DNA of 64,000 nt, from positions 118,236 to 182,235 of the forward strand of contig JAZQJV010000018.1 in the NCBI GenBank assembly GCA_045541795.1, given 5' to 3'. The stretch comes from Patescibacteria group bacterium. GTDB lineage: Bacteria; Patescibacteriota; Microgenomatia; UBA1400; PJMF01. How positions within the stretch are numbered: the first letter of the stretch is position 1; every line of letters starts with the position of its first letter. The translations under genes and the position numbers were made by a program. This document shows positions 566 through 40,563 of this stretch, piece by piece. Under the pieces are notes generated by a model. The model worked only from the letters and a program-made list of their open reading frames with translations. It was not told the DNA's origin and searched no databases.

Positions 566-834
566 TCGCAGAGAGTAATGTTTAGTTTTTGTGATGAATT
601 ACCCCGACCTTACGGTCGGGGTTATGGACAAATGTGATATGAATTATTTTGAACAATTATGTCTACTCAAAATTATAGTGACTACGCCCAGATTAACCTG
701 ATAACACCTATTGAATATGATCACTATTCAATTAGTTTGTTTAGGTTTTATCAATGTGAAAATTAATAAGTTGCCCAGCACGAGTTTGTTATAATCGGCT
801 TTAGGTTAATAATTTGTCTGGTCACCAGGCATAA

Positions 835-1374
835 GTGCCAACATTATTAACTGGAGGTTATATCACTTTTGCCTGGAAATCCATATGCGACCATCATGAC
901 TATAATCGTATTGATTTGCATGCCTTTAGACTGGACAATAGCTTTACTTATACAGTTTCACTTACAGTCAATTATGACAAGGTTAATCTTTTAGAGAAAC
1001 TGCCAGTCTTACCAAAGTTCGAACAATTATTTATAACTTTCAATCAACCACAAATGCTACTGACCGATACTTTATTGTGGCACGCTGATCGTTGTTACCA
1101 ATTTCAGGGACAAACATTCAATTATGTCCTCATCAGAGCACTGGTAAAAGCCAATGGAGAAATTCCCTGGAACGATCAGCTGCTGCTGATGTATGATCCT
1201 GGTCCTCTTCATCTAAGTAGCTCGAAAATAGATGATAGAAGTACTTTAATTTGTCGTGCTATAGATGACCTTAACTTGGAGCTCAAACAAAAACTTAAAA
1301 TGAATTTTACACCGATACACAGACGTAAAAATAAATTTATTAAATTTGATAAACAAATTATACTATCGACATAG
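835..1374 (+). CDS. Hypothetical protein in the AT-rich region
   Basis: ORF of 179 aa with no recognisable motif. Its low GC matches the surrounding island. Confidence 0.35.
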   Translation: MPTLLTGGYITFAWKSICDHHDYNRIDLHAFRLDNSFTYTVSLTVNYDKVNLLEKLPVLPKFEQLFITFNQPQMLLTDTLLWHADRCYQFQGQTFNYVLIRALVKANGEIPWNDQLLLMYDPGPLHLSSSKIDDRSTLICRAIDDLNLELKQKLKMNFTPIHRRKNKFIKFDKQIILST

Positions 1375-1469
1375 ACTCACTTAGCTGGAGTTACTCTAGG
1401 CTCAGTTTTTGCTTCTCTGGTAGTTTAATATCCCTGTCTAGAAATTAGTCGAGGCTATTAAACGACCGC

Positions 1470-1679
1470 ATGAGACAGAGCACAATAGTAGTACCAGCTC
1501 GCACCGACATCGGGAAAAAATATCGTACTAGCTACGACCCTATATCAGAGCAGGACGTTCACGATTTTATTGCTGCCGTTAAGGCAGATAGTGGATGGGT
1601 ATTGAAGTTTGATGAGGCAAAACAAACAGCCAATGATTTAATAGAGTTGGCCAAATTAGTCAATAAATATCAGGAATAA
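1470..1679 (+). CDS. Hypothetical small protein (69 aa)
   Basis: ORF only. It sits just upstream of the YhcG-like gene. Confidence 0.3.
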   Translation: MRQSTIVVPARTDIGKKYRTSYDPISEQDVHDFIAAVKADSGWVLKFDEAKQTANDLIELAKLVNKYQE

Positions 1680-1735
1680 CTGTCTTAAAAGTCTTGCATT
1701 TTTAATCAATTTGTGATATAAAGACCACATTAATT

Positions 1736-2824
1736 ATGACAAACACAAAAAAGATCCAGACAGTTACTAGTAACGATATGTCGATGTCTAATGATCAAGA
1801 GTATCGGGAATGGTTAGTCGACTTAAAAACAAGATATCAACATAGTCGCATTAAAGCATCTATAAAAATTAATTATGAGGTCATTTTTTATTACTGGTCT
1901 GTTGGTCGTGACATTGTGATTAAAAAAGCCGAATCAAAATGGGGTAGTGGTTTTTATGATAATTTGAGTCGCGATCTACGACGAGAATTACCTGGTATAC
2001 AGGGATTATCAAAAACAAATCTCAAATACATGAAGTACTTTTATGATCTTTTTCCAGATGTGTTTACTGATAAGTCAATTCGTCCACAAGTTGTGGACGA
2101 ATTGGAGCAAATACCTTGGGGACATATCCGATATATTATAGATAAGTGTCGCGGTGATCAACAAAAGGTGATATTTTTCATCAATAAGACCGTGGAAAAC
2201 AACTGGTCGAGAGCAATGCTGCTAAATTTCCTGGATACAGATCTTTACGAGAGGCAAGGGAAGGCGATTACGAATTTTACCAATAAGTTAGCTTCGCCTC
2301 AAGGAGAATTAGCTCAACAGCTTACCAAAGATCCTTACAGTTTTGACTTTCTTACTATGAGAGAAAACTATCAAGAAAAAGAGCTTAAGGATGCCCTGAT
2401 TGCTAATATTGAAAGATTTCTGCTGGAACTTGGCAAAGGTTTTGCTTATATGGGACGGGAATACCGCTTACAAATCGGTGAAACTGAAAAATTTATAGAT
2501 ATGCTCTTTTACAACACTGTCCTGCGTTGTTACGTGGTAGTAGAAGTCAAAGTGGAGAAATTTGAATCCGGACATTTAGGGCAATTGGGATTGTATGTGA
2601 CCGCGGTTAATCATCAGCTCAAAAACGAAACTGACAATCCCACTATCGGTCTGTTGATTTGCAAGAGCAAAGAGAATGTGGTGGCGAAATACTCGCTAGA
2701 AAGCATGGCGGTGCCGATCGGAATATCAGAATATGAGTTGCAAAAAATCTATCCCGCTGATTTCAAGAGTAGTTTGCCAACGATAGAGGAGATAGAGAAT
2801 GAGCTGGCTGATAATAACGATTAG
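1736..2824 (+). CDS. YhcG/DUF1016-family PD-(D/E)xK nuclease-like protein (copy 1)
   Basis: The N-terminal DUF1016-like region (YYWSVGRDIV...KAESKWGSGF...DLSRDL) and the C-terminal PD-ExK motif (FIDMLFYN...CYVVVEVK) are typical of the YhcG family. A paralog lies at 5609-6736. Confidence 0.65.
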   Translation: MTNTKKIQTVTSNDMSMSNDQEYREWLVDLKTRYQHSRIKASIKINYEVIFYYWSVGRDIVIKKAESKWGSGFYDNLSRDLRRELPGIQGLSKTNLKYMKYFYDLFPDVFTDKSIRPQVVDELEQIPWGHIRYIIDKCRGDQQKVIFFINKTVENNWSRAMLLNFLDTDLYERQGKAITNFTNKLASPQGELAQQLTKDPYSFDFLTMRENYQEKELKDALIANIERFLLELGKGFAYMGREYRLQIGETEKFIDMLFYNTVLRCYVVVEVKVEKFESGHLGQLGLYVTAVNHQLKNETDNPTIGLLICKSKENVVAKYSLESMAVPIGISEYELQKIYPADFKSSLPTIEEIENELADNND

Positions 2825-2845
2825 TAAAAATTAAGGTAATAACAT

Positions 2846-4273
2846 ATGTTCACACCTTTTGGCAAGAATCTCGACAATCTAAGTTTTGAAGACATTCAAA
2901 AATTTTGCGATAAAGGTGTTGCTGAAAATATTTATATTGATTACAAGAAAGAAATTAATCAGAAGAATGATCATCTTGCCAAAACTATTGCGTCCTTTGC
3001 TAATACACATGGCGGCTGGATAATAATTGGAGTAGAAGATAAGAATGATCGTCCAAACTCTCCATTTAACGGGATTGACTATACAGATGGAATAGAGTCT
3101 AGTATAACTACTATAATTGTTGACAATATTTATCCATATGTCGAAGTTACATCAAAGGTTATTGTCAACCATGATAATAAAAGAGCTTTTGTTGTAGTGT
3201 ATGTCCCAGAAAGTCATAAAACACCACATTGGATTAACAGCAGAAGGGATCTTTATATTAGAGCTAATACTAGAACAAAAACTGGCAGAGATGATATTAA
3301 GAATAAAAACGAAGACTTGGATATTTACGCCACTTCTGAAAATTGGGAATTCTTAAGAAATAAAAGGGAAAGGTCTCAACAACTGGCAATAGAATTGGAA
3401 ACAGCTTTAAATCGTTTGTTTCTATCATATAAAGATAAAGAAGAACGTTTGTGGTATCAAAATAACGAAAAAGTTAAAAATAATCCGTCGCTGCAAAGTA
3501 TAATATCTGAAGATATGGATACACTCGACTGTGCAGATCCAAGTATCACAACAATTAAAAATAGGCGAGAGTTCAGAAGCGAATGTTATCATGATAACAT
3601 TAGTATTATTGTCCAGCCAGTTTTCCCATCATACGCTATTTCTTCACCGCGTGATTTGAGAGAACACTATTCGTCTAACAGCGGTGCAAACCTCACTAAC
3701 GTTGGTTCACTTGACGAAAACTACAAACTTGATTATTTTCAAAACGGGATAGTAACTTTTTTTACTCCCGACAATAAGACAGGCAACCATTGCGCATTTT
3801 TTGCTCAAGACATCTTTGGTTCGTGCATGGTAAAACACAAGATAGTTCAACACAATCGAAAGAAGATTGATAACTACCAGGGTTATGAAGTGCCGCCAAA
3901 TAGTAACATTATTGACTTTGAATACTTGATAGTTTATATTGAACAATTTTTAAAATATGCATCAGTTTTTTATAAACAAATTGGTTATTTAGGCGAACTT
4001 AGACTTAAGGTGGTCATGAATGTGCCAGAATGGTCATATATGATAATTCATGATTCAACCAAGAATTTTCCGCTTGCATATAGTAATTCTGATAAATATT
4101 TTCTTTGGGAGAAAGTTTTTATTAATGCTGATTTTGTTAACGATCAAGAACGAAATAAAATACTAAATACTATGTATGAAAGTATTGGATTCTTTTTTAA
4201 TTGTGACGAAATTCCTAAACAAATAATTAATAATCTGAGAAAGAATCCAAATAATGCTAATGAGCAACTTTAA
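2846..4273 (+). CDS. AlbA_2 (Schlafen-like, divergent AAA-4) domain protein with an uncharacterised C-terminal region of about 350 aa
   Basis: The N-terminal motif TIASFANTHGGWIIIGVED matches the AlbA_2 DNA-binding domain signature. It lies 21 nt after the YhcG-like gene with an SD (aaggt), so a two-gene operon is likely. Confidence 0.6.
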   Translation: MFTPFGKNLDNLSFEDIQKFCDKGVAENIYIDYKKEINQKNDHLAKTIASFANTHGGWIIIGVEDKNDRPNSPFNGIDYTDGIESSITTIIVDNIYPYVEVTSKVIVNHDNKRAFVVVYVPESHKTPHWINSRRDLYIRANTRTKTGRDDIKNKNEDLDIYATSENWEFLRNKRERSQQLAIELETALNRLFLSYKDKEERLWYQNNEKVKNNPSLQSIISEDMDTLDCADPSITTIKNRREFRSECYHDNISIIVQPVFPSYAISSPRDLREHYSSNSGANLTNVGSLDENYKLDYFQNGIVTFFTPDNKTGNHCAFFAQDIFGSCMVKHKIVQHNRKKIDNYQGYEVPPNSNIIDFEYLIVYIEQFLKYASVFYKQIGYLGELRLKVVMNVPEWSYMIIHDSTKNFPLAYSNSDKYFLWEKVFINADFVNDQERNKILNTMYESIGFFFNCDEIPKQIINNLRKNPNNANEQL

Positions 4274-4299
4274 CTTCCCGTCTCAAAAACTCCCCAATC

Positions 4300-4365
4300 A
4301 TGCTATAATCAACCTCAAGTAACTGGGTTCGGATTTCCCGCCAGAAACCACCAAAAAATAGGATA
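4300..4365. repeat. Direct repeat copy 1: TATAAT box, 15 nt, then conserved 30-mer gggttcggatttcccgccagaaaccacc
   Basis: Aligns over about 65 bp with 6835-6902. The 30-mer (4325-4352) is identical apart from one base. Confidence 0.7.
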
Positions 4366-4423
4366 TTGAAGTACGCAAATTATATCCATATAAAAACGAT
4401 ATTTTAAGCAAATTATTTGGTAT

Positions 4424-5602
4424 TTAATCATTATTGTTAATGTTTAAAAGTAATTGTAATCTTTTCATGATTTCATCGAATGTTATTATTATATTTCTGG
4501 AAACACTCTTTCTGAATAAGTTGAACGATCTTTCTTGTTCTTCAAGAAGTCCTGATTTGTTACCGATAATAATTATTCCTAATGGATCAAGAGCATTCAA
4601 GCGGTTATCTTCATAATCTTTTCCAATAAGAGTTGAAAAATTATCACTCGCAATTCTAATTTGATTTTCTAGTTGAACTATCGCACCACTCAATTCGTCA
4701 GACATGGAATAGCACACATTCTCTCCAACGGCATCTGAATTGCCTCTATATTGATGTCCAATAATGGCACTTTGCGGTGTTTTAATTTCAATAACTGCAA
4801 AGCTTTTATTTGAAAGATTTTGCAAAAGAAAATCAGCGGCGACTCCTCCTTGGCCGTTTCTTCCACGACTGTTCTTTCCTCCTAGATATGTTTCGCCATT
4901 CAAATAACAGACTGGACAATAAAACAAACTCTCAAAAATCCACTGATTTTCTGTGAAGAATGCTTGCCAAAAGTTTTCTTTTTGGTTATTATTCATATTT
5001 TTCGCAATTGTATTAATTGCATTCTGCAATTTGGCTAGTAATATAATATTTTCTAATACTCTGATGTTTCCTTTTCCTAAATCTCTTAACTTGGTAATAA
5101 CCATTTCCTTATTTTTAATATCGCCAATTTGCAATAAAACACTTTCTATATTTCCTTCTCCAATAGATATTGTTGTGGTTCCAAATTTAATACCGTTTTC
5201 ATTTAGAGTCTCTCTAATTAACGGTAAATGCTCAAAGAGATTTTTCATGGCTTCACCATCAAGGTTGAGATCATAAAATTCTCCTTTTCTTAACTTAGTA
5301 ACAGATAGGCCTTTATAACTTTGCCAGTTGTCATTAATTCCTTTTCTTTCCCATCTGAAACCTCCTCGCAATGGTTTGTCAGTTTGAGATGGGTCTACCC
5401 ACTTTGGGTAAAAAAGTAATCTTGTGCTTTCAGTTTCTTTTAGTATAATTGGGGAAATATCAGCGGTTTTATTGGAAGTAGATTTTATTGTTATATCTTT
5501 TGATTCTTTCTGTTTGTCTGTAAATCCCTTGCGAGGTAGCGTGAAATCTATTTCTCCTGAAATATTGCTAAAATCATATTTTGGAGTCATGGTGGCTTTC
5601 AA
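4424..5602 (-). CDS. Shedu-like (DUF4263) PD-(D/E)xK nuclease
   Basis: Of 392 aa. The C-terminal half carries WQAFFTENQWIFESLF, ADFLL and VIEIKTP (a D...ExK motif), and ends in NIIITFDEI, as DUF4263/SduA-type proteins do. It lies 6 nt downstream of YhcG-like copy 2 in the same orientation. Confidence 0.5.
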   Translation of the reverse strand: MKATMTPKYDFSNISGEIDFTLPRKGFTDKQKESKDITIKSTSNKTADISPIILKETESTRLLFYPKWVDPSQTDKPLRGGFRWERKGINDNWQSYKGLSVTKLRKGEFYDLNLDGEAMKNLFEHLPLIRETLNENGIKFGTTTISIGEGNIESVLLQIGDIKNKEMVITKLRDLGKGNIRVLENIILLAKLQNAINTIAKNMNNNQKENFWQAFFTENQWIFESLFYCPVCYLNGETYLGGKNSRGRNGQGGVAADFLLQNLSNKSFAVIEIKTPQSAIIGHQYRGNSDAVGENVCYSMSDELSGAIVQLENQIRIASDNFSTLIGKDYEDNRLNALDPLGIIIIGNKSGLLEEQERSFNLFRKSVSRNIIITFDEIMKRLQLLLNINNND

Positions 5603-5608
5603 TCAAAA

Positions 5609-6736
5609 TTACCTATTTGCTTCTAGCAACTTTTTCTCTATCTCCTCTATCGTCGGCATCGTTCCTTCCACCTTTTGCGGATACAACTTCTCCAGTTCGT
5701 ACTCCGAAATTCCCAATGGTTGATTGCTAGATTCCAAAGCATACTGAGCGATTAAATTATCTTTTTGCTTGCAAATGAGCAAACCGATAGTCGGATTATC
5801 TCGTCCTTCTTTTTGTAAAAGGTGATTGCAAGAAACCACGTAACCGCCAAGTTGCCCCAAATCGGCAAAATCAAATTCGCCAATTTTCACTTCAACCACA
5901 ACGTAACAAGACAACTGTAAATTATAGAAAAGCAAATCAATAAATTTTTCTTTCTCGCCGATTTGCAGTCGATACTCTTTTCCCACATACGCGAAGCCCG
6001 TGCCAAGTTCTAATAAAAATTTGGTTATATTTTCTAGCAGGGCATCTTTTAATTTACGTTCATTGTATTTATCGGTAATACCAGTAAAAGCAAAATTATA
6101 TGGATCTTTTGTTAATTCCTGAGCTAAATCGCTAGTAACATTGGGTAAGGTTTTGCCAAAATTCGTCAATGCTTTTCCTCGTCGATCATAAAGATCGGTT
6201 TCAATAAAATTGAGTAGCATATCTCGGCTCCAACCATTTTCTATTGTTTGGTGAACAAAAAAGAGTGCTTTTTGTGGTTCTGTTTTGAATTTATCAATTA
6301 ACAGCTTATGATGGCCCCACGGAACAGAAAAAATGTCGCTTTCAATTTTCTCAATGACTTGCTGAGTAATTACATTACTTTCTATTTGCTCCCCAACTTG
6401 GGGAGCAATTTCGAAATATTGATGGTAAAGTATATAAAAGTTTTTCATGTACAACAAATTTGTCGGCGAAAAACACGTTGCGTCAGGATTGAGAGTTTTA
6501 AGGTCTCGGCTGAGATTTTTCATGAAACCACTGCTCCATTTACTTTCGGCTTTCATTACCACAATGTCTCTGCCCAAATCATAGTAAAAACGAAGCATTT
6601 CCCGATTAACTTTTACTGCTGCTCTAACTTGGCTCAAGCGATAACGAGAAGAAAGCTTCCCAATCCACGAGGCATAATTTTCATCTAGAATTGTTAGTGA
6701 CTGAACTTGTTTTGCAACCTGTTTTTTCTCTGTCAT
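5609..6736 (-). CDS. YhcG/DUF1016-family PD-(D/E)xK nuclease-like protein (copy 2)
   Basis: Clearly paralogous to 1736-2824 (RFYYDLGRDIVVMKAESKWSSGF; FIDLLFYN...CYVVVEVK). It is the first gene of the minus-strand two-gene operon. Confidence 0.65.
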   Translation of the reverse strand: MTEKKQVAKQVQSLTILDENYASWIGKLSSRYRLSQVRAAVKVNREMLRFYYDLGRDIVVMKAESKWSSGFMKNLSRDLKTLNPDATCFSPTNLLYMKNFYILYHQYFEIAPQVGEQIESNVITQQVIEKIESDIFSVPWGHHKLLIDKFKTEPQKALFFVHQTIENGWSRDMLLNFIETDLYDRRGKALTNFGKTLPNVTSDLAQELTKDPYNFAFTGITDKYNERKLKDALLENITKFLLELGTGFAYVGKEYRLQIGEKEKFIDLLFYNLQLSCYVVVEVKIGEFDFADLGQLGGYVVSCNHLLQKEGRDNPTIGLLICKQKDNLIAQYALESSNQPLGISEYELEKLYPQKVEGTMPTIEEIEKKLLEANR

Positions 6737-6834
6737 AGTGGCTATTACTTATAGCACAATAACGCTATTTTGTCAATACTGATAATTAATTATTATTGGC
6801 ATTTATTTTCAATTCTTGCAAAAACAACTTCATA

Positions 6835-6902
6835 CTGTTATAATCAGTTTCAAATAATTGGGTGCGGATTTCCCGCCAGAAACCACCCCAAAAAGATGGG
6901 AT
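6835..6902. repeat. Direct repeat copy 2: TATAAT box, 15 nt, then conserved 30-mer (6860-6887)
   Basis: Same spacing and sequence as copy 1. Here it serves as promoter and leader of the zinc-ribbon/TM2 gene. Confidence 0.7.
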
Positions 6903-6922
6903 TACTGCGATGAAAGTGAAAC

Positions 6923-7256
6923 ATGACAGATGAAAAAACAAAATACTGTAAACATTGCGGTTCGCTTATTGATGTAGAATTGCATAATATGCCCGAAGTG
7001 TGGCAAGCAGGTCGAACAAGTAAAAGCCGAGCTTCCAAATGTAGTGATCAATAACAATAACACCAATTCGAATATAAACTATGCTGGTGCTGTGGGGAGC
7101 GGGCGGCCTATCAATAAGTGGATAGCTTTGGGTTTATGTCTTTTTCTGGGCATATTCGGTGCTCATAAGTTTTATGAAGGAAAGATTGGCATGGGAATAT
7201 TGTATTTGTTTACATTTGGTTTGTTTAGTCTTGGTTGGTTTTTAGATATTTTTTAA
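6923..7256 (+). pseudogene. Zinc-ribbon plus TM2-domain membrane protein split by an apparent +1 frameshift
   Basis: Frame A reads MTDEKTKYCKHCGSLIDVELHN.... The TM2 frame reads ...CPKCGKQVEQVKAELPNVV then INNNN...GAHKFYEGKIGMGILYLF (TM2 domain). The two CxxC halves of one zinc ribbon sit in different frames around position 6989. Confidence 0.5.
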
Positions 7257-7355
7257 TCCTAACAAAGCCTAATCCTTATTACATATAATACTTTTACATT
7301 TGCGTTTTTATTATAACTACGTTATAATAACACAAACTTTAAGGAAAATATAAAC

Positions 7356-8429
7356 ATGAAAAATCATCGAAAATTCCATCCTCGCATTATTGTCAATATC
7401 ATCTGTCTTTTTTCATTGGCATTATCTCACATTATTTTTTCGCTACCGATTAAAATAATTGATACAGTTTATGCCGTCGAGCGTGAAACTGTCACTGTGA
7501 GCCGTGTGATTGATGGTGATACAATCGTTTTGAATGATGGGCGAAAGGTTAGATATATTGGAATTGATACACCAGAAACAGTTCATCCAACAAAAAATGT
7601 GCAGTGTTTTGGGAAACAAGCCAGTAACAAAAATAGAGAATTAGTCCTTGGTAAAACTGTGGAACTGGAAAAAGATATCAGTGAAACTGATCGCTATGGA
7701 CGTTTACTCAGATATGTATATTTGGATGGCGTCATGATTAATCATAAATTAGTCGCTGAAGGTTATGCCACAACCGTAACCTATCCTCCAGATGTTAAGT
7801 ATAAAGAAGAATTCTCCAAAGCTCAGGCGCAGGCAAGACAAGCAAGACTTGGGCTATGGGGTAATGAATGCAACGAAAGCAGCAGCACTCACGCATCCTC
7901 AAACAACAATGCTAGCTCAAATACAAATAAAATGGATTCGTCAAGCACATCGTCATCATCTCAAAACAACAAAACTCAAAATGACCATGAAGGCAACCAA
8001 GCTTCTACTCAACCAACTAACACTAGCGCACAAAAATGTCCATCAAATTGTAGTGAGGCCAAAAGCATGGGAATGGTTAACATTACACCGTCGCATCCAT
8101 GCTGGCAAGAAAAATTTGATGGCGATAAAGATGGCGTGGGTTGTGAAAGTGACAACCGGTCTACCAATACAAAAACAACTAACAAATCCAATAATGTCAA
8201 TAAACAGACCAGTGCTACGCCGGCACCCACGCCAGTGCCAAGTCGCGCCCCAACGCCAGAACCAACCCCACCGCCTACGTCAGTGCCAGCTCCAGCTGCG
8301 CCAACCCAATCTTGTCCAAATAACTGTACCCAAGCAAAGGCAATGGGAATGGCCAATATGACACCTTCTCATCCTTGTTGGCAATCTAAATTTGACCGAG
8401 ATAAAGACGGTATTGGTTGCGAAGACTAG
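7356..8429 (+). CDS. Secreted thermonuclease (SNase-like) with two C-terminal Excalibur calcium-binding domains
   Basis: SNase motifs are RYIGIDTPE and DRYGRLLRYVY. Two repeats of C..C...MG..N.TPSHPCW..KFD.DKDG.GCE follow. An N-terminal TM or signal segment is present. Confidence 0.75.
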   Translation: MKNHRKFHPRIIVNIICLFSLALSHIIFSLPIKIIDTVYAVERETVTVSRVIDGDTIVLNDGRKVRYIGIDTPETVHPTKNVQCFGKQASNKNRELVLGKTVELEKDISETDRYGRLLRYVYLDGVMINHKLVAEGYATTVTYPPDVKYKEEFSKAQAQARQARLGLWGNECNESSSTHASSNNNASSNTNKMDSSSTSSSSQNNKTQNDHEGNQASTQPTNTSAQKCPSNCSEAKSMGMVNITPSHPCWQEKFDGDKDGVGCESDNRSTNTKTTNKSNNVNKQTSATPAPTPVPSRAPTPEPTPPPTSVPAPAAPTQSCPNNCTQAKAMGMANMTPSHPCWQSKFDRDKDGIGCED

Positions 8430-8438
8430 AAAGTAAAA

Positions 8439-9119
8439 ATGTCACAAAAAGATAATAGCAAACATTCTTGCAGAATAATCATGGCCGCATTGCTAGTGCT
8501 TCTAAGCATTGCATTGCTGCATAAATCTTTTTTTGCTGCCGCCTTCACTATCTGCTACGCATATCTCATCTCGCCACTATCAATTCAATTGGTAAGTAAA
8601 ATATGTAAGAAAGAAAATGAGAAATGGCTATATTCAACCATGACTTTTATTTTTGCTCTTTGCTGGATGACCACAATTCAAACTGGTCAGCCACAAATGG
8701 ATAATGTGTTAACGCAAAATAGTGAAAAAAACGCATCGCTAGAGAATGCGTCAACACAAAATAATGAAAAAATCGCTTCACTAGAAAAAGAGCTCCAATC
8801 AGTTAAGAACGAAAGAGATGAAATTCAAGCAAACAACCAAAAAAGAGCCATTTCAGCTGCCAAATCATATTTGGAATACAGTCCAATGTCGAGCCGAGAG
8901 TTGATTAAGCAACTCGAGTTAGAAGAATTTTCTCATGAAGACGCAGCATACGGTGTAGAGCATGCTGATATCAATTGGAACGATCAAGCATCACGGTCAG
9001 CAGTCCTCTTTATTGAGTTTGCTAATCCGTCAACCGAAGAATTAAAAAAACAACTTGAGTACGAAGGTTTCACAAGCAACGAAATAAAATTCGCCATTGA
9101 GCATAATAGTAATGGGTAA
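8439..9119 (+). CDS. Membrane-anchored protein with two C-terminal Ltp-type repeats (phage superinfection-exclusion lipoprotein family)
   Basis: The repeats AKSYLEYSPMSSRELIKQLELEEFSHEDAAYGV and ...STEELKKQLEYEGFTSNEIKFAIEH match the Ltp repeat pattern (YL..S...LI.QLEYEGF...A.YAV). An N-terminal TM segment and a coiled-coil repeat region are present. Confidence 0.55.
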   Translation: MSQKDNSKHSCRIIMAALLVLLSIALLHKSFFAAAFTICYAYLISPLSIQLVSKICKKENEKWLYSTMTFIFALCWMTTIQTGQPQMDNVLTQNSEKNASLENASTQNNEKIASLEKELQSVKNERDEIQANNQKRAISAAKSYLEYSPMSSRELIKQLELEEFSHEDAAYGVEHADINWNDQASRSAVLFIEFANPSTEELKKQLEYEGFTSNEIKFAIEHNSNG

Positions 9120-9148
9120 ATGACTCTATTGCTTCCAGTAAGGAAAGT

Positions 9149-9490
9149 ATGCCATCTACCAAAAGTTACCTTAATCACCTTCTAACTCAATTCTCGCAGT
9201 TGGATGATATTTCTTACCGCTCGATGATGGGGGAGTATATCATTTATTTCAAAGGCAAAGTAGTAGGTGGAATTTATGATGATCGATTTTTGGTCAAGAC
9301 AACAAAATCTGCACTCGCGTTGATGCCAAACACAAGCAAAGAATTACCATATCCCGGTGCGAAAGAAATGTTGTTGGTAGACGATACGGGAGACAAAGTA
9401 TTTTTACGCGAGCTGCTGACCGCGATATATGAGGAGCTGTCAGTGGTAAAGAAAAAAGAAAGCACATTAAAACGTTTATTAACGAATTGA
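9149..9490 (+). CDS. TfoX N-terminal domain protein
   Basis: MMGEYIIYFKGKVVGGIYDDRFLVK matches the TfoX_N motif (MFGGYGLY..G..FALV.DD.LYLK). Confidence 0.55.
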   Translation: MPSTKSYLNHLLTQFSQLDDISYRSMMGEYIIYFKGKVVGGIYDDRFLVKTTKSALALMPNTSKELPYPGAKEMLLVDDTGDKVFLRELLTAIYEELSVVKKKESTLKRLLTN

Positions 9491-9502
9491 CATTCATTGT
9501 CC

Positions 9503-10204
9503 TCATCTTTGACGTCTCGCTCTCTCCATATACTCTCTTTGCACCCGCATAAATAATTCCTTATCTGCCAAAAGCGTCCGGATCTCATTTAAAAAACGCT
9601 CGTACTCCGGATCAGAAAAAAAGTATTTCGCATAGCCGCCCTCACCAAATTTTTCTTTCAGGTGTTGCCAACTTCTCACAAACAATTGCTCGTCACTAAA
9701 ATCCGGATGTAAATTTTTACCATACACAAAACTTCGATACAAACAATCTTCTACGCTCGTATTTCTGTCCGCCGTGGACACAATTTTCCCGTACACGCTC
9801 CGGGGCTCGTGATTGCTTGAAGCACGATGATCTTCGATTGCCTCTTTAATCAGTTTTAATTGTTTACCGCTAAAAAAATCAGGCAAATGCTTATCCTCAC
9901 TCATCATCCGCGCAGAAATAATCTCATGCTTGGCTGGATCAATGTGATGTCCCAGATCATGATAAGCAGCCACAGTGTAGACAATGTCTAAGTTAACGTC
10001 GGTCAGTTTTTGCGCCAAGTTAATACTTCTTTCAATGACATATTTAATGTGTTTTAAATTATGAGCTGGCTCATTTTGAGCGTACTGCGGGAAAACATTT
10101 TGCTGGATGTATGTTTGTAATTTTCTATTGACGGTAGGATAAAAATTATTTTCTAACATAAACATTACTATATTATAACACGAGCAGACATTTTGAAAGC
10201 TCAA
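9503..10204 (-). CDS. HD-domain phosphohydrolase
   Basis: HD motif (TVAAYHDLGHH). Confidence 0.6.
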   Translation of the reverse strand: MSFQNVCSCYNIVMFMLENNFYPTVNRKLQTYIQQNVFPQYAQNEPAHNLKHIKYVIERSINLAQKLTDVNLDIVYTVAAYHDLGHHIDPAKHEIISARMMSEDKHLPDFFSGKQLKLIKEAIEDHRASSNHEPRSVYGKIVSTADRNTSVEDCLYRSFVYGKNLHPDFSDEQLFVRSWQHLKEKFGEGGYAKYFFSDPEYERFLNEIRTLLADKELFMRVQREYMERARRQR

Positions 10205-11833: not shown

Positions 11834-12024
11834 ATTTTCTCCTGGTGTCGCGTTTCGGGTTTGTACCTAGGTAATTCCAATTTCCTTTTCGCATTTTTTA
11901 TGGTATAATCACGCATCTTACTCACTTTCACGGTCAGATCATCACGGTTTTGCTCGTGGAGGCGGGTGAAATCAGATCTTTGACAAGTGAAGTGAAATCA
12001 TACATCCTTAAAGGAGGAATTTCC

Positions 12025-14049
12025 ATGAAGTTGAAGTTTTGGGTTTTGAGTTTGGCAGCAGTGTTGTGTTTCCCCGCTCTTGCGTCTGGTGCGAGCATCG
12101 AACAGATCTTGGCTAGCATGAGTACTAGCGATAAGATCTGTCAGCTCCTGATCCCAGCCTACCGCAAGACGGCCAGTAATGACGCCACTGTCTTAAGCAG
12201 CGACGCGGCGGCACTCATCAGTCAGTATCCTTTTGGTGGTTTTATCGTTTACGGCGAAAATCTTGTCGACAATGACGCCGGCGTCCGGTTCATCCATGAC
12301 GTCCAACGTGCTAATATCAGCGCTGATACCGGCCGGCCGCAATTGCTCGTAATGACCGATCAGGAAGGAGGCCTAGTCTATAGGCTTACTCACGGCACAA
12401 GCGGCATCTCGCCGATGGCTATGGGTGCGGCTAGAGACAGCACTGCCACTCAGACGATCGCCAAAATCCTAGGCACTGAAGTGTCGGCCCTCGGCATTAA
12501 TTGTAACCTCGCTCCAGTACTCGACGTCGTCACCAATCCGCGCGGTTATATCGGCCTGCGGGGTTTCGGCATTGATCCGCAGCTGGTAGCCGATCAAGCC
12601 AGTAGCTATCTGCGCGGCCTGCGGGAGGCGGGTGTCCTAGGGGCAGTCAAACATTTCCCCGGCACAGGCAGCGCTCAGGAAAACACAGATGGGGCCAATT
12701 TGCCCGTCGTCATTAGTAAGACCCTTGAAGAGCTAGAGTCTTGCGATCTCATTCCTTTCCGCCAGGTGATCAAGCAGGGCCTGGTAGACATCGTGATGGT
12801 TTGCAATGACAGTTTTTCAAGTATAGAAACGCGCCAATTTACCGGCTCTGACGGCCAGCAATATGCCCTCCCTGCTTCAGTTTCCCCGGCGATTATCAAT
12901 GACCTGCTGCGCTGTGGGCTCGGCTTTGACGGCCTGGTGCTCACTGATGCACTCTTGGGCACAGTCATGGCCGCACAGTTTAGTGCCGTGCAAGTCTTAG
13001 AGTTGGCTTTGCAGGCAGGCGCCGACATGATGCCGTACGCTTTAGACCTCAACTCAGTCGCGAGTGTGGCGGCATTCCAGCAGGCCCTGGAGACTTTCAC
13101 TGCACGGGTGGACGCGGATCAACAATTGCAAGGTCTACTAGACACTGCTGTCAGGAGGATTTTGACGTTTAAAAGTCGCCATGAACTCCTGACTCCGTAT
13201 GCTCGCTCAGATTCTTGGGCGGCTAGTCAGGCACAGACGGTACTCCAGAATGTCAGCAACCAGGCTCATCACGACCTCCAGTGGCCGGTTGCTTTGAGTG
13301 CGGTCACGCTGGTGGAAAACCGTAATCAGGCTTTGCCGCTTAGCGGTGATGAGAGAGTGGCCATCCTCTATTATTACGCTAGTCAGGAAGCATCAGTGCA
13401 ACTTGCTCTTGACCGGCTTGTAGCTGACGGTCAGCTGACAAGCAGCCAGGCGGCAGACGTCCTTAATCTAGACGTCCACGACGAAAACTTAAGCGAACTG
13501 CTCACCGGCGTGGACACCGTAGTCATTTTAAGCTCTGTCTATTATGAATCGGAGTTGAGCCCAGATTCTCCCTCTCCTTACAGCGACGAAATCAGTATCG
13601 TGCTGCCACTCCTGTCAGAACTCGCTGGTCGTGGAGTCAAAATCATTCACGCCAGTTGTCATCTTCCTTACGACATCGGGCTGTATCTGGGGCGAGTGGA
13701 TGCCATCCTGGCTTGCTATTTGGCCAACGGGATCTCCCTTCCTATCACCACACCAGATAATCAGCCTCGTTACGGCGTTATGGTACCGGCACTCGTTTAC
13801 AAGCTTTTTGATCAGCGGGGAGATTTTTCCGCCCGACTGCCCGTAGACATTTACACTATTAATGGCGGGCAGTATCAGCTAGACGATGTCCTTTTGTCTC
13901 GCGGCTGGGGTCTGACACTGGCTGGTGACGTCATCACTGATCCGGTAGCGACTCACCAGAGCTCTAGCGGCGGCTGTAATGCTTTGTCGGGATTGTGGCT
14001 GTGGACGGGCATTCTTGTTTTCGCCTCTAGCAAAAAGTACCACTGCTGA
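12025..14049 (+). CDS. Glycoside hydrolase family 3 (beta-N-acetylhexosaminidase/beta-glucosidase-like), secreted
   Basis: KHFPGTGSAQENTDG is a GH3 motif. Signal peptide MKLKFWVLSLAAVLCFPALASGAS. A strong SD (aaggagg) sits before the ATG at about 12025. The track ORF 11950 start is probably an upstream extension. Confidence 0.7.
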   Translation: MKLKFWVLSLAAVLCFPALASGASIEQILASMSTSDKICQLLIPAYRKTASNDATVLSSDAAALISQYPFGGFIVYGENLVDNDAGVRFIHDVQRANISADTGRPQLLVMTDQEGGLVYRLTHGTSGISPMAMGAARDSTATQTIAKILGTEVSALGINCNLAPVLDVVTNPRGYIGLRGFGIDPQLVADQASSYLRGLREAGVLGAVKHFPGTGSAQENTDGANLPVVISKTLEELESCDLIPFRQVIKQGLVDIVMVCNDSFSSIETRQFTGSDGQQYALPASVSPAIINDLLRCGLGFDGLVLTDALLGTVMAAQFSAVQVLELALQAGADMMPYALDLNSVASVAAFQQALETFTARVDADQQLQGLLDTAVRRILTFKSRHELLTPYARSDSWAASQAQTVLQNVSNQAHHDLQWPVALSAVTLVENRNQALPLSGDERVAILYYYASQEASVQLALDRLVADGQLTSSQAADVLNLDVHDENLSELLTGVDTVVILSSVYYESELSPDSPSPYSDEISIVLPLLSELAGRGVKIIHASCHLPYDIGLYLGRVDAILACYLANGISLPITTPDNQPRYGVMVPALVYKLFDQRGDFSARLPVDIYTINGGQYQLDDVLLSRGWGLTLAGDVITDPVATHQSSSGGCNALSGLWLWTGILVFASSKKYHC

Positions 14050-34472: not shown

Positions 34473-35684
34473 ATGAACGGGAAAATAGTGCCGGTGTTTT
34501 TGGCGGCAGTTTTACTTCTCCCCTTATGGAGGGGAGATAGGCATACCACAGGTACAGCCAGAGGGGAGGTGCAAGCAGCCAGTAGTGCCACCACCAAAAA
34601 ACTCAAAGACGTGGCGCTTGGTGAGGTTATCCAAATTGGTGTTACTAAGTACGTCAAGATCGCTGCCAATAGCTATCAGGCGGTAAAGCCGTATACCTGT
34701 GCTGACCCAGTACTCACTTATGCCGGTGCTAGCAAAAGTTTCACTTATACGGGGAACTATCAGACATTTACGGCATATGCTGGGTGCCAGTACCAGGTGG
34801 AGCTGTGGGGTGCACAGGGCAATGACAACGGTTCAGTACTTGGCGGCAGAGGCAGTTACACTGCCGGATTATTTACGCCAGACGGCACAAGCTCACTTTA
34901 CGTTTATGTCGGCCAACATCAACAGTCAGTGCTAGCAGCTTCCTTTAATTGCGGTTCTACCGGCCCCTTAAATCACGGCGGCGATGCTGTTGGCTACGGG
35001 GGCGGCGGTGCTACAGATATTCGCACCGTAAGCGGAACTTGGGATAATGAAAACTCACTGCGTTCCCGGATCATTGTCGCCGCCGGCGGTGGTGGCAGTA
35101 AAATCTGGGGCGGTTGTAATTCAGTCGGATCTCAAGAAGGGATTTTTGCTGGCGGTATTAGCGGCTATACTGGTCCAGGCTCTGGTTACGCACCCAATGC
35201 TTGCGTCGCCGGGACTGGCGGTACTCAAGTGGCTGGTGGCAGTGCCTCTACGTGTACTGGTAATGGTGGCACCAGAGCGAGTGCGGGCAGCTTTGGTAAA
35301 GGCGGCAATCCTGGCAGTACATATAGCGCCGGTGGTGGCGGCGGCTGGTATGGTGGGGGCGGCGGCACTGCTAGTCACTGTTATATTGCCTGCGGCGGTT
35401 CTGGTTCCTCTTACATCTCCGGCCACACTGGCTGCGTCGGCGTCACTTCACTAAGCGACACTACTCCCAAATCCGGCTGCACCACCGGTACGACTAATAA
35501 TGCCTGTTCGCTTAGCCCTACTGGTCTGAGCTTCACTGACACCGTGATGATTGACGGTGCTGGTTATTCCTGGACAAATGTAAAAGGATCACTTCAACAA
35601 ATGCCCAATCCTGCCGGCGGTTACTACGCGAGCGGCGTGGGTCATACCGGCAATGGTGCCGCCCGTATCACCCGCCTTAATTAA
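34473..35684 (+). CDS. Secreted glycine-rich protein
   Basis: Signal peptide, then poly-Gly tracts (GGGGSKIWGG, GGGGGWYGGGGGTASHCY) and a Cys-containing C-terminal region. Function unknown. Confidence 0.45.
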   Translation: MNGKIVPVFLAAVLLLPLWRGDRHTTGTARGEVQAASSATTKKLKDVALGEVIQIGVTKYVKIAANSYQAVKPYTCADPVLTYAGASKSFTYTGNYQTFTAYAGCQYQVELWGAQGNDNGSVLGGRGSYTAGLFTPDGTSSLYVYVGQHQQSVLAASFNCGSTGPLNHGGDAVGYGGGGATDIRTVSGTWDNENSLRSRIIVAAGGGGSKIWGGCNSVGSQEGIFAGGISGYTGPGSGYAPNACVAGTGGTQVAGGSASTCTGNGGTRASAGSFGKGGNPGSTYSAGGGGGWYGGGGGTASHCYIACGGSGSSYISGHTGCVGVTSLSDTTPKSGCTTGTTNNACSLSPTGLSFTDTVMIDGAGYSWTNVKGSLQQMPNPAGGYYASGVGHTGNGAARITRLN

Positions 35685-35841: not shown

Positions 35842-37059
35842 ATGCTCAACAACCGCAAACTGATTTACTTCATCTTAGTACTCGCCATTGCCATCGTGAG
35901 CGCCGGCATCGGCGCCTGGTTCGGCTACGGCCAAAAAGTAAGCACCGGCACCAAACTGCTAACTGCCAATCATGTTGCTCCCGCAGACTCATCACTTGCC
36001 GAAAGTCAAGAATACGAATCGCTGCTGGCCGATATCGAGGCTGGTAACTTTGCACAAACCGAGGCAGCTCCAACGACACCGGCCTCAATTGCTCCTGTCA
36101 TGTCTGGCAGCGTCGAGCCGTCAGGCACAGTTCCCAAAACCGTCTCCATCCCCACGCTGGGAGAAGCCAACGCCATCAGCTACACGAGCAGGGATCTCGG
36201 TGGCGGCAACTGGGAGAGTCACTTTTACATCTATACGGTGGATTTTGGCGGCGATGTCTTTAACTTTTTGGATCTGTCGCTTCCCGTCCATGCTGCCGCT
36301 TACGTGGGCGCCGTGCCAGGATTTAGTGACCACACCATGGTTTTCAGCTCTTCAGATGACGCTGGTATGCCGATCATTTATGCTGTCGACCTGGCAGAAA
36401 ATCCGGATCAATACGTCACTTTCGCCAGCGTCGCCGATCAGAAGGCCTTTTGTCAGTTGGTGCCTAACTGCGATCTTGGTTCCTCGATTTTTGCGCTGCA
36501 AAAAGTAAACGGCCGGCTCGCTTTTAACACCGGCGTAGATTGCTACGCTAATTCCTGTCCTACTTATTATATCGATTTGTTTAAAGGCGGTCACCTGGAA
36601 AACGCTACCAGTCAACCAGCAAACGCACCATTAGCTTATCCCAATAGCCTTTCTGCCAGTGACGGTTTCAGCGTCCAGCGGGAGGGCGGCAGCTTATATT
36701 TAACCGATCCTTCTGGTAAATCAAGCGAAGTTCTAAGCGGTGTCATTAGTTACTTTTTCTGGCGCAATCACATTTTTTACCTGCTCAATAACGACCGCAC
36801 CAACGTCTACCGTTTTGATATCCGCTCTGGCAAGTCGGACTCAATCTATACAGTCACTGGCGGCCGCTTGCTTGGTCTGTCCACCATGGGTCAAAATAAA
36901 ATCTTGCTCACCTTCCAACCCGATGGCTCCAATCAGTGGCAGTCCCGGATCATTGATCATGATGGTCAAGCGGCGAGCTTCACCTATTACCAAGCTGGCG
37001 CAGCTGTACCCGTAGATTTCAGCGACACTCACAGTATTACGGTGCAGTACTTTGAGTAG
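35842..37059 (+). CDS. Hypothetical membrane-anchored extracytoplasmic protein
   Basis: N-terminal TM (LIYFILVLAIAIVSAGIGAWF) and a Gly/Ser/Thr-rich body. No motif assigned. Confidence 0.4.
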   Translation: MLNNRKLIYFILVLAIAIVSAGIGAWFGYGQKVSTGTKLLTANHVAPADSSLAESQEYESLLADIEAGNFAQTEAAPTTPASIAPVMSGSVEPSGTVPKTVSIPTLGEANAISYTSRDLGGGNWESHFYIYTVDFGGDVFNFLDLSLPVHAAAYVGAVPGFSDHTMVFSSSDDAGMPIIYAVDLAENPDQYVTFASVADQKAFCQLVPNCDLGSSIFALQKVNGRLAFNTGVDCYANSCPTYYIDLFKGGHLENATSQPANAPLAYPNSLSASDGFSVQREGGSLYLTDPSGKSSEVLSGVISYFFWRNHIFYLLNNDRTNVYRFDIRSGKSDSIYTVTGGRLLGLSTMGQNKILLTFQPDGSNQWQSRIIDHDGQAASFTYYQAGAAVPVDFSDTHSITVQYFE

Positions 37060-40089: not shown

Positions 40090-40563
40090 ATGAAAAAATG
40101 GAGTGTGATCGCAGTTTTAATTTTGAGCCTGTTTGCGGGACGGCCAGCACATGCTGCCCCTTACGAAAGTTGGAAGAGTTCCAAAATGTGCACAGGCGCT
40201 AAAGACACGCTTTCTGAAGACGTTGCCACTATCGCTGGTATCGTTTGCCTGATCGCCAATGCCTTAAATGCCGTCCTGACGCTGTTTTCCTTCGTCGGCT
40301 TCCTCATGTTTGTGTATGCCAGTTTTATGCTCATGATCTCTGGCGGTAATCCCAGCGGCTTTGAAACAGCGAAAAATACCTTTACTTACGCAATTTTTGG
40401 CTTCGTGCTGGCTTTATCATCATTTGTGATCATCAATCTTATTTCTTATTACACTGGCCTCAATAGCTTCTTTGTCATCAAATTCTTGCCCAATACTATT
40501 TCTGGCAGCGCCAGCAGTGGCGGTACAGGCGGTAGCGGTACGGGAGGTACAAGCGGGCCATAA
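40090..40563 (+). CDS. TrbC/VirB2-like pilin family protein (paralog 2)
   Basis: Signal peptide followed by two hydrophobic helices flanking MISGGNPSGFETAKNT. Its stop and the next gene's ATG are 1 nt apart. Confidence 0.45.
   Translation: MKKWSVIAVLILSLFAGRPAHAAPYESWKSSKMCTGAKDTLSEDVATIAGIVCLIANALNAVLTLFSFVGFLMFVYASFMLMISGGNPSGFETAKNTFTYAIFGFVLALSSFVIINLISYYTGLNSFFVIKFLPNTISGSASSGGTGGSGTGGTSGP

Follow-up and report, generated by a model that had tools for sequence, protein, structure and literature searches.

An SNase-Excalibur nuclease, an Ltp-repeat protein and a TfoX_N-domain protein encoded side by side in a low-GC defence island of a Patescibacteria group bacterium

The Ltp protein of TP-J34, a temperate phage of S. 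thermophilus, is a superinfection-exclusion lipoprotein of 142 aa with a lipid anchor, a serine-rich spacer and two tandem three-helix repeats (4EQQ), and it acts alone (PMC3952083). Staphylococcal nuclease (Nuc/NucI) has the SNase fold with its Ca2+-binding and catalytic residues and an N-terminal export signal, and YokF of Bacillus SPbeta carries a C-terminal Excalibur Ca2+-binding module. Patescibacteria typically possess SNc nucleases, for which a function in nucleobase salvage was proposed (PMC11495043). TfoX_N genes are found as cargo of streptococcal IMEs (PMC7563843), and some stand-alone TfoX_N proteins of Clostridia are named 'TfoX/Sxy family'.

Here, we analyzed a DNA stretch of 64 kb, referred to as the window, in which relatives of these proteins are encoded by three adjacent ORFs on the + strand: a Ca2+-dependent SNase-family nuclease, predicted to be secreted or anchored (7356-8429; 357 aa), an Ltp-repeat protein with a predicted TM anchor (8439-9119; 226 aa), and a stand-alone TfoX_N-domain protein predicted to be cytoplasmic (9149-9490; 113 aa). 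These ORFs had been delimited before in an annotation made without database searches (the sequence-only reading), and their coordinates and common strand proved to be exact. The three genes probably represent functionally independent cargo, arranged as one co-oriented string in an acquired defence island, and their products are new members of known families, each most likely acting alone according to its family role.

The Ltp-repeat protein shares with TP-J34 Ltp the two tandem three-helix repeats as well as a flexible spacer between anchor and repeats, and its repeats are likewise predicted to lie outside the membrane. Unlike TP-J34 Ltp, it has about three TM helices in place of the lipobox and lipid anchor, a length of 226 aa instead of 142 aa with a long helix preceding the repeats, a spacer without the serine-richness described for TP-J34 (PMC3952083), and a divergent second repeat; also, its gene is part of a cellular defence island and has no integrase or repressor gene as neighbour.

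The nuclease resembles Nuc/NucI in its SNase fold and the full set of Ca2+-binding and catalytic residues, possibly also in an N-terminal export signal, and YokF in its C-terminal Excalibur module (34% identity over aa 46-264), but differs from both by two Excalibur copies, linkers rich in S/N/T and in P/T, and the lack of a lipobox. By sequence, it is nearest to the secreted SNc nucleases of Patescibacteria/CPR (Gottesman-, Woese-, Saccharibacteria and similar MAGs), with which it would share the proposed role in nucleobase salvage (PMC11495043). In contrast to two relatives inspected, which have housekeeping neighbours, it has defence genes as neighbours and lies in a low-GC island. The TfoX_N protein has the same size as the stand-alone Clostridia proteins and about 70% identity to them throughout, and related genes travel on mobile elements, as in the streptococcal IMEs (PMC7563843). 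It differs from TfoX/Sxy competence regulators by the absence of the C-terminal domain, and from the 104-aa Clostridia consensus by a slightly longer C-terminal tail.

Island limits, neighbouring genes and the co-oriented gene string

All three ORFs are located in a low-GC accessory/defence island of about 9.6 kb (576-10204, without strand), which is complete within the window. GC steps at position ~575 and at ~10.2 kb mark its edges, with a uvrA remnant and core genes as flanks. The GC content is 0.363 in the island versus 0.437 in the uvrA remnant (1-575) and 0.475-0.481 in the core (10270-64000), and GC3 per gene is 25-42% in the island versus 46-58% in the core. The island is horizontally acquired, AT-rich and of the defence/accessory type, in agreement with the chromosomal island named in the sequence-only reading. 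It is also a defence island by content, as it harbors Shedu SduA, two PDC-S02/YhcG nucleases and an AlbA_2 protein.

Two YhcG/DUF1016 PDDEXK nucleases of the PADLOC candidate system PDC-S02 type, which are paralogues with 53% identity, are encoded at 1736-2824 (+ strand; Pfam YhcG_C 7.6e-60, DUF1016_N 4.3e-34) and at 5609-6736 (- strand; PADLOC PDC-S02 5.3e-150, Pfam YhcG_C 7.5e-57). Between them lie the gene of a Schlafen/AlbA_2-domain protein (2846-4273, + strand; Pfam SLFN_AlbA_2 6.9e-17), for which the PADLOC scan gave no match, and that of the Shedu defence protein SduA (4424-5602, - strand; Pfam SduA_C 9.2e-22, SduA_N 7.4e-12; PADLOC SduA 1.3e-68). The final low-GC gene of the island is convergent and encodes an HD-domain phosphohydrolase (9503-10204, - strand; Pfam HD 6.7e-9, phrog_3921 2.4e-33; GC 0.39). 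An HD gene is also present near TfoX_N in Clostridia, but a linkage of HD and TfoX_N genes was rejected, as the two HD proteins share the HD motif alone. Searches at the DNA level with the island yielded no match among plasmids and, among phage records, short TfoX_N and TM2 segments only. The single contig (JGI) of a near-identical strain stops just short of the island, and upstream of infA the more distant relative GCA_017431625.1 carries another flank; neither of them tells whether these relatives possess the island.

At the right end of the island, a zinc-ribbon/TM2 gene and the nuclease, Ltp-repeat and TfoX_N genes form a string, all in + orientation. The first of these (6923-7256; TM2 Pfam 1.4e-17) is split by a frameshift near 6977 into an ORF at 6923-7054 and a frame at 6978-7256, the annotated ORF being 7044-7256; after repair of the frameshift, the sequence matched TM2 (4.4e-17) and, below threshold, a zinc ribbon. 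The intergenic gaps are 9 bp between the nuclease and Ltp genes and 29 bp between the Ltp and TfoX_N genes, and no terminator-like site was found on the + strand between 7256 and 9490. The string is probably co-transcribed, and because of the gap of only 9 bp the nuclease and Ltp genes are almost certainly co-expressed. Such a gap is the layout expected of a functional pair and, as such, runs counter to independence of the two genes.

The best promoter-like site upstream of the string (6816-6844, + strand; TTGCAA-17-TATAAT with TG) is a match to consensus only. It falls in a 75-nt direct repeat, of which copy 1 is located at 4284-4358 and copy 2, the one with the site, at 6819-6893. Permissive Rfam scans of small regions matched no family to the repeat, its folding was not significant (z = -1.4 and -0.5), ARAGORN called no tRNA at this position, and no further copies were found in IMG/VR or in 325 related loci. 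Lacking Rfam, folding and tRNA support, the repeat was discarded as a candidate for a riboswitch, a leader RNA or a tRNA-derived att site.

Domain composition of the three proteins

The first protein had been described as a secreted thermonuclease with two Excalibur domains, and Pfam confirmed these domains, with SNase (PF00565) at E=2e-28 over aa 64-169 (99.4 bits; cut-off 21) and Excalibur (PF05901) at E=3.8e-21 in two stretches. The protein is predicted to be extracellular by virtue of an N-terminal signal/anchor (aa 9-36; 7380-7463): the N-terminus is basic, followed by hydrophobic residues 9-36 and a possible cleavage site VYA-VE at residue 40, features by which a cleaved signal is not told apart from an uncleaved anchor. 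No lipobox was found. Then follow the SNase domain (aa 41-173; 7476-7874) with its S/N/T-rich linker, Excalibur 1 (aa 226-264; 8031-8147) with its P/T-rich linker, and Excalibur 2 (aa 318-356; 8307-8423).

The S. aureus nuclease matched across aa 41-173 (E ~1e-23), and the residues D53/D55/T56, R66, D71/T72/E74 and R113/Y114/R116 are present. The Ca2+ ligands D21, D40 and T41 of the S. aureus enzyme correspond to D55, D71 and T72, and its catalytic residues R35, E43 and R87 to R66, E74 and R116; in 26 aligned homologues these positions are mostly invariant, T72 being nearly so. The DxDxDGxxCE motif of the Excalibur domains is found as DGDKDGVGCE at 255 and as DRDKDGIGCE at 347, and each domain contains four of the eight cysteines. 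With ~76% identity at the protein and ~70% at the DNA level, the two copies apparently arose by internal duplication.

The score against the NCBIfam NucI equivalog NF047694 (137.9 bits) is below the cut-off of 250, and the nuclease is therefore a family member but not an orthologue of NucI. The PADLOC model 'C3a212 SNc+LTD' was matched at 3e-39, and membership in an SNc+LTD system was rejected because this match is limited to the SNase domain. Most of the best 80 genome hits came from MAGs of Patescibacteria, to which the SNase core is 60-70% identical. Altogether, SNase+Excalibur nucleases gave >5,400 matches and are very common as stand-alone genes, usually located next to housekeeping genes.

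For the second protein, the assignment as an Ltp-type repeat protein passed the test against the Ltp profile (Pfam Lipoprotein_Ltp, PF07553; E=6.5e-19, two stretches) and was supported by both sequence and fold of 4EQQ. The PDB sequence search retrieved 4EQQ at E=5e-6 with both repeats covered, and the AF2 model, with pLDDT 96-98 across the repeats, was aligned to it by Foldseek with TM 0.84-0.87 and an rmsd of 0.9-1.0 Å over 91 columns at 30% identity. A PHROG 'superinfection exclusion' family matched as well (6e-28). The protein begins with a helical membrane region (aa 13-80; 8475-8678) containing the hydrophobic helices 13-28, 31-50 and 63-80, and no lipobox [LVI][ASTVI][GAS]C is present in the first 80 residues. 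The proposed membrane anchoring is supported, with a predicted TM anchor in place of a lipid anchor. A disordered linker and a long helix follow (aa 81-133; 8679-8837), the spacer residues 81-100 being disordered (pLDDT <50) and rich in N/Q/S/E and the helix extending over residues 101-147, and the two three-helix repeats occupy aa 134-223 (8838-9107). The TM-anchored layout is seen again in other Ltp homologues, e.g. L175 and P0112. The repeats resemble phage and gut proteins, with an identity to any relative of at most 45-49% in the repeat region only. Some other Ltp homologues are found in non-prophage, defence-type contexts with pPIWI_RE, NERD and PLD-helicase genes.

The third protein has TfoX_N (PF04993) as its sole Pfam match, with a marginal score (E=3.7e-7; 30.6 bits versus a cut-off of 30.1). 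The domain assignment of the sequence-only reading holds, since the marginal score is backed by ~70% identity to proteins that include members named 'TfoX/Sxy family' and by a weak fold match to 2OD0. The identity extends over the full length of 104-aa Clostridia proteins (Lachnospiraceae, Oscillospiraceae, Mogibacterium), and there are thousands of homologues at this level, some of which are named 'TfoX/Sxy family protein' by NCBI. The AF2 model (pLDDT 86) shows a single alpha/beta domain plus a C-terminal helix; its best match in the fold search, 2OD0, is weak (TM ~0.5), and the PDB gave no match to its sequence or profile. At the nucleotide level, the gene is 72% identical to a gene that adjoins the recombinases in a phage/element of S. 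suis. As the protein is devoid of signal peptide and TM segments, the "surface-level" of the sequence-only reading does not apply to it.

A module for DNA scavenging or competence, with the TfoX_N protein as regulator of DNA uptake and the nuclease acting on extracellular DNA, would fit the name TfoX, which derives from competence regulators, the co-orientation of the Ltp and TfoX_N genes with their 29-bp gap, and a nuclease that plausibly feeds nucleotide salvage. We consider it highly improbable, because the 113-aa protein consists of the N domain only, without TfoX_C in the Pfam search and without an assigned NCBIfam name. Moreover, its Clostridia homologues adjoin TRAM/tRNA-U5 methyltransferase, NUDIX, RibD_C and HTH genes instead of competence genes, the annotation of the window contains no com or pil gene, and an SNase gene was present at 0 of 20 TfoX_N loci.

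Linkage of the genes elsewhere and the question of phage origin

Linkage was assessed in genomes, metagenomes and viral contigs, with no more than the 80 best hits taken from each scan and flanks of at most 6 kb, a sample in which some loci are near-duplicates or shortened by contig ends. The loci numbered 133 for SNase, 164 for Ltp and 20 for TfoX_N (317 in total), and at none of them was a second of the three families present within ~6 kb. Within this sample, Ltp or TfoX_N was found at 0/84 SNase loci, and SNase, Excalibur or TfoX_N at 0/160 Ltp loci; in viral loci, co-occurrence was 0/13 for TfoX_N and 0/49 for SNase. As its source sequences are ~70% identical, the local TfoX_N HMM used covers a narrow range. 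Domain fusions were absent among the 120 top matches listed per search.

For each of the genes, the nearest homologues are found in unrelated genomic contexts, and the relatives differ from gene to gene, with Patescibacteria for the nuclease, Clostridia for the TfoX_N protein, and phage and gut proteins for the Ltp repeats. Because the genes are of differing ancestry and unlinked elsewhere, they are regarded as independent passengers and not as parts of one machine. The "surface-level DNA-exclusion or DNA-scavenging module" of the sequence-only reading is not borne out by these data, with 0 family pairs in the 317 loci and no fusions among the listed matches. At 90% identity, each of the three proteins is a singleton, and therefore no close relative of the island is available for comparison.

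The same data bear on a two-part surface barrier against phages, in which the Ltp protein would stall DNA injection and the co-expressed Ca2+-dependent nuclease would destroy the exposed phage DNA. Consistent with this idea are the 9-bp distance of the two genes on the same strand without a terminator-like site between them, the predicted outward-facing position of both products, the setting in a defence island, and the match of the SNase domain to the PADLOC 'SNc+LTD' model (3e-39), though at the domain level only. However, the two families did not co-occur in the 133 SNase and 164 Ltp loci, they were not fused in the 120 top matches listed per search, SNase+Excalibur nucleases (>5,400 matches) are common alone and usually accompany housekeeping genes, and TP-J34 Ltp is sufficient alone (PMC3952083), so that we regard such a barrier as quite unlikely. 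That nuclease and Ltp protein constitute a new composite superinfection-exclusion system, a two-step envelope barrier assembled from genes of different origins, appears very unlikely.

A phage origin of the gene cluster had also been suggested. It is not supported, as the whole 9.6-kb island is devoid of phage genes and, of the three families, only Ltp is common in viral contigs, with 487 relatives (IMG/VR) versus 49 for SNase and 13 for TfoX_N. The neighbours of viral Ltp genes, represented by their 132 largest ORFs, included 30 tyrosine integrases, 8 resolvase-type recombinases and 9 ImmA-like (M78) peptidases. By contrast, no integrase, recombinase, repressor, terminase, portal, tail, lysis or structural gene was found in the island (576-10204). 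Prophage genes were likewise absent from the ORFs scanned in the rest of the 64-kb window, which were all but eight ORFs of 58-64 kb and several ORFs <140 aa, and no att-like repeats flank the island.

These observations also speak against a prophage remnant, which we consider unlikely and in which the string would derive from a lysogeny or moron region whose prophage has decayed, Ltp being the gene for superinfection exclusion. Such a remnant would be in line with the abundance of Ltp relatives in viral contigs and their typical position beside integrases, with PHROG matches of the TM2, HD, YhcG and nuclease proteins, with the occurrence of SNase+Excalibur proteins in SPbeta-type prophages as YokF, with the TfoX_N homologue that adjoins recombinases in a phage record of S. 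suis, and with nearby signs of decay, i.e. the frameshifted TM2 gene and the uvrA remnant. Besides the absence of phage genes and att-like repeats, DNA matches to phage records were restricted to the short TfoX_N and TM2 segments, plasmids gave none, and the remaining island genes are typical of cellular defence islands.

Proposed roles and significance

With the three genes regarded as independent cargo, we infer their secretion, membrane topology and biological roles as follows. The nuclease would be exported via its N-terminal signal/anchor, bind Ca2+ by the SNase site and the two Excalibur modules, and degrade extracellular DNA and RNA; in an organism with a small genome, its role is most plausibly nucleotide salvage. 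About three helices of the Ltp-repeat protein would reside in the membrane, with the two acidic repeats exposed outside the cell on the flexible linker and the long helix. By analogy with TP-J34 Ltp, the protein may block genome injection by incoming phages, which would make it one more single-gene defence beside Shedu and the two PDC-S02 nucleases. The TfoX_N protein would be a small cytoplasmic protein acquired from Clostridia-like bacteria, in which close homologues are very abundant.

If this explanation is true, its value is modest: an Ltp-type surface protein would be encoded outside a prophage, beside Shedu and PDC-S02. The locus would also caution against deducing function from adjacency alone, as three DNA-themed domains lie side by side without conserved linkage. 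Furthermore, an uncultured bacterium from ruminant-gut metagenomes, probably of the CPR, would possess a compact defence island whose cargo apparently stems from several donor lineages including Clostridia. For the Ltp family, TM-anchored versions would exist beside the lipoprotein prototype, and the locus would support the view of Ltp-repeat proteins as general, horizontally traded single-gene defences.

Low-GC island and its gene string

Near the left end of the window lies a block (576–10204) with a GC content of 36.3%, compared to 43.7% in 1–575 and 47.5–48.1% in 10270–64000, which bears out the island location proposed in the sequence-only reading. Also, GC3 is 25–42% in the island genes versus 46–58% in the core genes. 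Judged from its sequence, the block represents a compact defence/accessory island of 9.6 kb. Its left border is a decayed uvrA remnant (1–565), in which ORF 389–565 aligns to UvrA of the PDB (E = 1.6e-14) over the Walker-B region and then continues directly into the extreme C-terminal tail, thereby implying an internal deletion of about 40 aa; further frame breaks are present upstream. The right flank is core-like and comprises genes for a small membrane protein, GT87 and GH3, followed by infA-rpsM-rpsK-rpsD-rpoA-rplQ-rplM-rpsI, ATP-dependent ligase, tRNA-Glu, dnaG, lepA, infB, nusA, eno, and gpmI. The GH3 glycosidase (11950–14049), related to beta-N-acetylhexosaminidases, has a GC content of 0.54, unusually high for the window, and ends with a hydrophobic segment followed by KKYHC, an arrangement reminiscent of the C-terminal sorting signals of cell-surface proteins.

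Starting from its left border, the island carries an ORF without assignment (179 aa), a YhcG/DUF1016 PDDEXK nuclease gene (PADLOC PDC-S02; 1736–2824, + strand), an AlbA_2/Schlafen gene, Shedu sduA, a second YhcG nuclease gene (PDC-S02; 5609–6736, − strand), a frameshifted zinc-ribbon/TM2 gene, the nuclease, Ltp-like and TfoX_N genes at the right end, and a convergent HD hydrolase gene. The YhcG nucleases are inverted paralogues (53% identical) flanking the AlbA_2/Schlafen gene and sduA. A frameshift near 6977 divides the TM2 gene (6923–7256) into an N-terminal CxxC ORF (6923–7054) and a frame open in 6978–7256 with CPKC and TM2; after repair, TM2 was found at 4.4e-17, and the gene is either a pseudogene or affected by an assembly error.

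The positions of the three ORFs at the right end and all their domains agreed exactly with those proposed from the sequence. Pfam searches identified SNase (E = 2e-28) and two Excalibur copies (E = 3.8e-21) in the nuclease ORF (7356–8429, + strand; 357 aa), two Lipoprotein_Ltp copies (E = 6.5e-19) in the second ORF (8439–9119, + strand; 226 aa), whose repeats thus do match the Ltp profile, and TfoX_N (E = 3.7e-7; 30.6 bits with a cut-off of 30.1) in the third ORF (9149–9490, + strand; 113 aa). The intergenic gaps are 9 bp between the nuclease and Ltp genes and 29 bp between the Ltp and TfoX_N genes. Since the best predicted + strand promoter-like site (6816–6844) lies upstream of the TM2 gene and no + strand terminator-like site was found between 7256 and 9490, the four co-oriented genes TM2-nuclease-Ltp-TfoX_N are probably transcribed as one transcript.

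A 75-nt direct repeat (4284–4358 and 6819–6893), the copies of which share 79% identity and a core of 23 nt without any mismatch, CGGATTTCCCGCCAGAAACCACC, brackets the SduA and second YhcG block. It occurs only twice in the window, with 0 copies expected by chance, and each copy contains a TATAAT box, the second directly upstream of the TM2-nuclease-Ltp-TfoX_N string. No Rfam family match, significant folding or tRNA call was obtained for the repeat, and no copies were detected in IMG/VR or any fetched locus. It could be a junction scar of cassette insertion or a shared promoter/leader.

Ltp-repeat protein and the question of phage origin

Residues 134–221 of the Ltp protein aligned to both repeats of 4EQQ, the structure of the superinfection-exclusion lipoprotein Ltp of Streptococcus thermophilus phage TP-J34 (E = 5e-6), and 'superinfection exclusion' families were found in PHROGs (6e-28). 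In the AlphaFold model (mean pLDDT 82; repeats 96–98), the repeats superimposed on 4EQQ with TM 0.84–0.87 and rmsd 0.9–1.0 Å; RecX three-helix repeats were the second-best fold matches. In TP-J34 Ltp, a serine-rich spacer connects the lipid anchor with the repeat domain (PMC3952083), whereas the protein studied here, in which inspection of the sequence revealed no lipobox, has hydrophobic helices (13–28, 31–50, 63–80) instead of the anchor, followed by a disordered linker (81–100) and a long helix (101–147). The net charge of +2 each in the N-tail and the 51–62 loop favours an N-in, C-out topology, which would place the acidic repeats outside the cell. Among the matches listed, homologues align over the repeats only, i.e. 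about 40% of the protein, with identities not exceeding 45–49%, and a few, such as the homologues L175 and P0112, share the layout of several TM segments plus Ltp. The protein may act alone as a TM-anchored injection blocker.

With 487 Ltp, 49 SNase and 13 TfoX_N relatives in IMG/VR, clear enrichment in phages is confined to the Ltp family. The 132 largest ORFs flanking viral Ltp genes included 30 tyrosine integrases, 8 resolvase-type recombinases, and 9 ImmA-like peptidases, and cI-type HTH proteins were also found nearby. Ltp of viral contigs therefore sits in lysogeny modules, as in TP-J34, where ltp adjoins int (PMC3952083). None of this context is present in the island: profile searches of 576–10204 detected no gene for an integrase or other recombinase, a repressor or a structural protein of phages, and the island has no flanking repeats. 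Other cellular Ltp homologues adjoin defence genes (pPIWI_RE, NERD, PLD-helicase). Of the phage origin suggested for the cluster, a plausible ultimate phage ancestry of the Ltp gene remains, but the whole cluster cannot be called a prophage remnant.

TfoX_N protein and linkage of the three genes

The TfoX_N protein shows about 70% full-length identity to a very abundant 104-aa stand-alone Clostridia family, some members of which are named 'TfoX/Sxy family protein' by NCBI; no NCBIfam name was given to the protein itself. PDB sequence and profile searches revealed no related solved structure, and the model (pLDDT 86) bears weak likeness to 2OD0, followed by the DNA-binding domain of MotA from phage T4 and folds of the YjbR/YdhG type. 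In Clostridia, the homologues have housekeeping neighbours (TRAM/tRNA-U5 methyltransferase, NUDIX, RibD_C). The TRAM/tRNA-U5-methyltransferase gene lies immediately upstream of stand-alone TfoX_N in two distinct contexts (Clostridia contigs L009–L014), a conserved linkage that may be a clue to what the family actually does. A copy with 72% nucleotide identity in an S. suis phage record directly follows recombinases amid metal-resistance cargo, and TfoX_N genes are listed cargo of streptococcal IMEs (PMC7563843). Together with the lack of a TM segment, signal peptide and TfoX_C domain in sequence analysis and Pfam searches, these neighbourhoods indicate a cytoplasmic protein that would be neither a Sxy-type regulator of competence nor a cell-surface component, so its proposed membership of a surface-level module was not upheld.

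Linkage was analyzed from the side of all three genes using local HMMs built from homologue sets, with a narrow one for TfoX_N, and the best 80 matches per scan, some of them redundant or ending at contig ends. Among best matches in genomes and metagenomes, none of 84 SNase loci contained Ltp or TfoX_N within about 6 kb, and SNase, Excalibur or TfoX_N was absent near Ltp in all 160 loci (80 viral, 80 metagenomic). The viral SNase (0/49) and TfoX_N (0/13) loci also lacked co-occurrences. Including individually fetched loci, the totals were 133 for SNase, 164 for Ltp, and 20 for TfoX_N, with no co-occurrence in any of them, and no domain fusions occurred among the 120 top matches listed per search. 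All three proteins are singletons, and the contigs of relatives either stop short of the island or are different at this site, so the sample comprises no close relatives of the lineage; within these limits, the juxtaposition is unique to the window. The dedicated DNA-exclusion or DNA-scavenging module proposed earlier thus found no support in the sampled loci. A cooperative barrier formed by Ltp and nuclease, the products of adjacent genes, appears quite improbable to us. The evolutionary affinities differ from gene to gene, which together with the missing linkage elsewhere argues for independently acquired cargo instead of a co-evolving system. Overall, we consider it likely that the genes for an extracellular nuclease, a lone Ltp-type blocker, and a cytoplasmic TfoX_N protein are cargo of the 9.6-kb defence island, transcribed together as a string but independent of each other in function; the initial observation was confirmed and its interpretation partly supported.

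Nuclease and host

The SNase domain (aa 41–173) aligned to S. aureus nuclease (E about 1e-23) with a complete set of Ca2+ ligands and catalytic residues (D55, D71, T72, R66, E74, R116), most of them invariant in 26 aligned homologues. The basic N-terminus, the following hydrophobic stretch (9–36) and possible VYA|VE cleavage site, the absence of a lipobox on inspection of the sequence, and four cysteines per Excalibur module point to export. The Excalibur modules (8031–8147 and 8307–8423, + strand; DGDKDGVGCE and DRDKDGIGCE) have a P/T-rich linker between them and, with identities of about 76% at the protein and about 70% at the DNA level, look like an internal tandem duplication. The SNase-Excalibur architecture is very common (>5,400 matches at E <1e-10); of the 133 related loci with SNase, no more than 51 showed any Excalibur domain. 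The score was under the cut-off of the NCBIfam NucI equivalog. Only 38 of 50,697 phage records had any match, the nearest being of SPbeta YokF type (about 34% identity), and the best genome matches were largely Patescibacteria/CPR MAGs (60–70% identity in the SNase core).

Besides this CPR affinity, a short IF-2 (480 aa), the ATP-dependent ligase, many large Pfam-less proteins, PMT/GT87 glycosyltransferases, and a weak T4SS-pilin match in a relative's contig fit a host from Patescibacteria/CPR, which we regard as more likely than not. An ALK/LTK glycine-rich-domain protein (6.6e-34) lies among the core genes beside large ORFs of 405, 1221, and 624 aa without Pfam match (set 34473–35681, 35842–37056, 40472–44134, 48257–50128); small-genome lineages of which little is known typically encode such proteins. 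Exact copies of the S4, S11, and S13 proteins were found in JGI and ENA contigs, and the sample-name prefix XIEF21 suggests that the ENA samples are ruminant-gut metagenomes.

By sequence, each of the three proteins would add to an already known family. The nuclease may act outside the cell in Ca2+-dependent degradation and salvage of nucleic acids and, if the host belongs to Patescibacteria/CPR, would fit the nucleobase-salvage role proposed for secreted SNc nucleases of Patescibacteria (PMC11495043).
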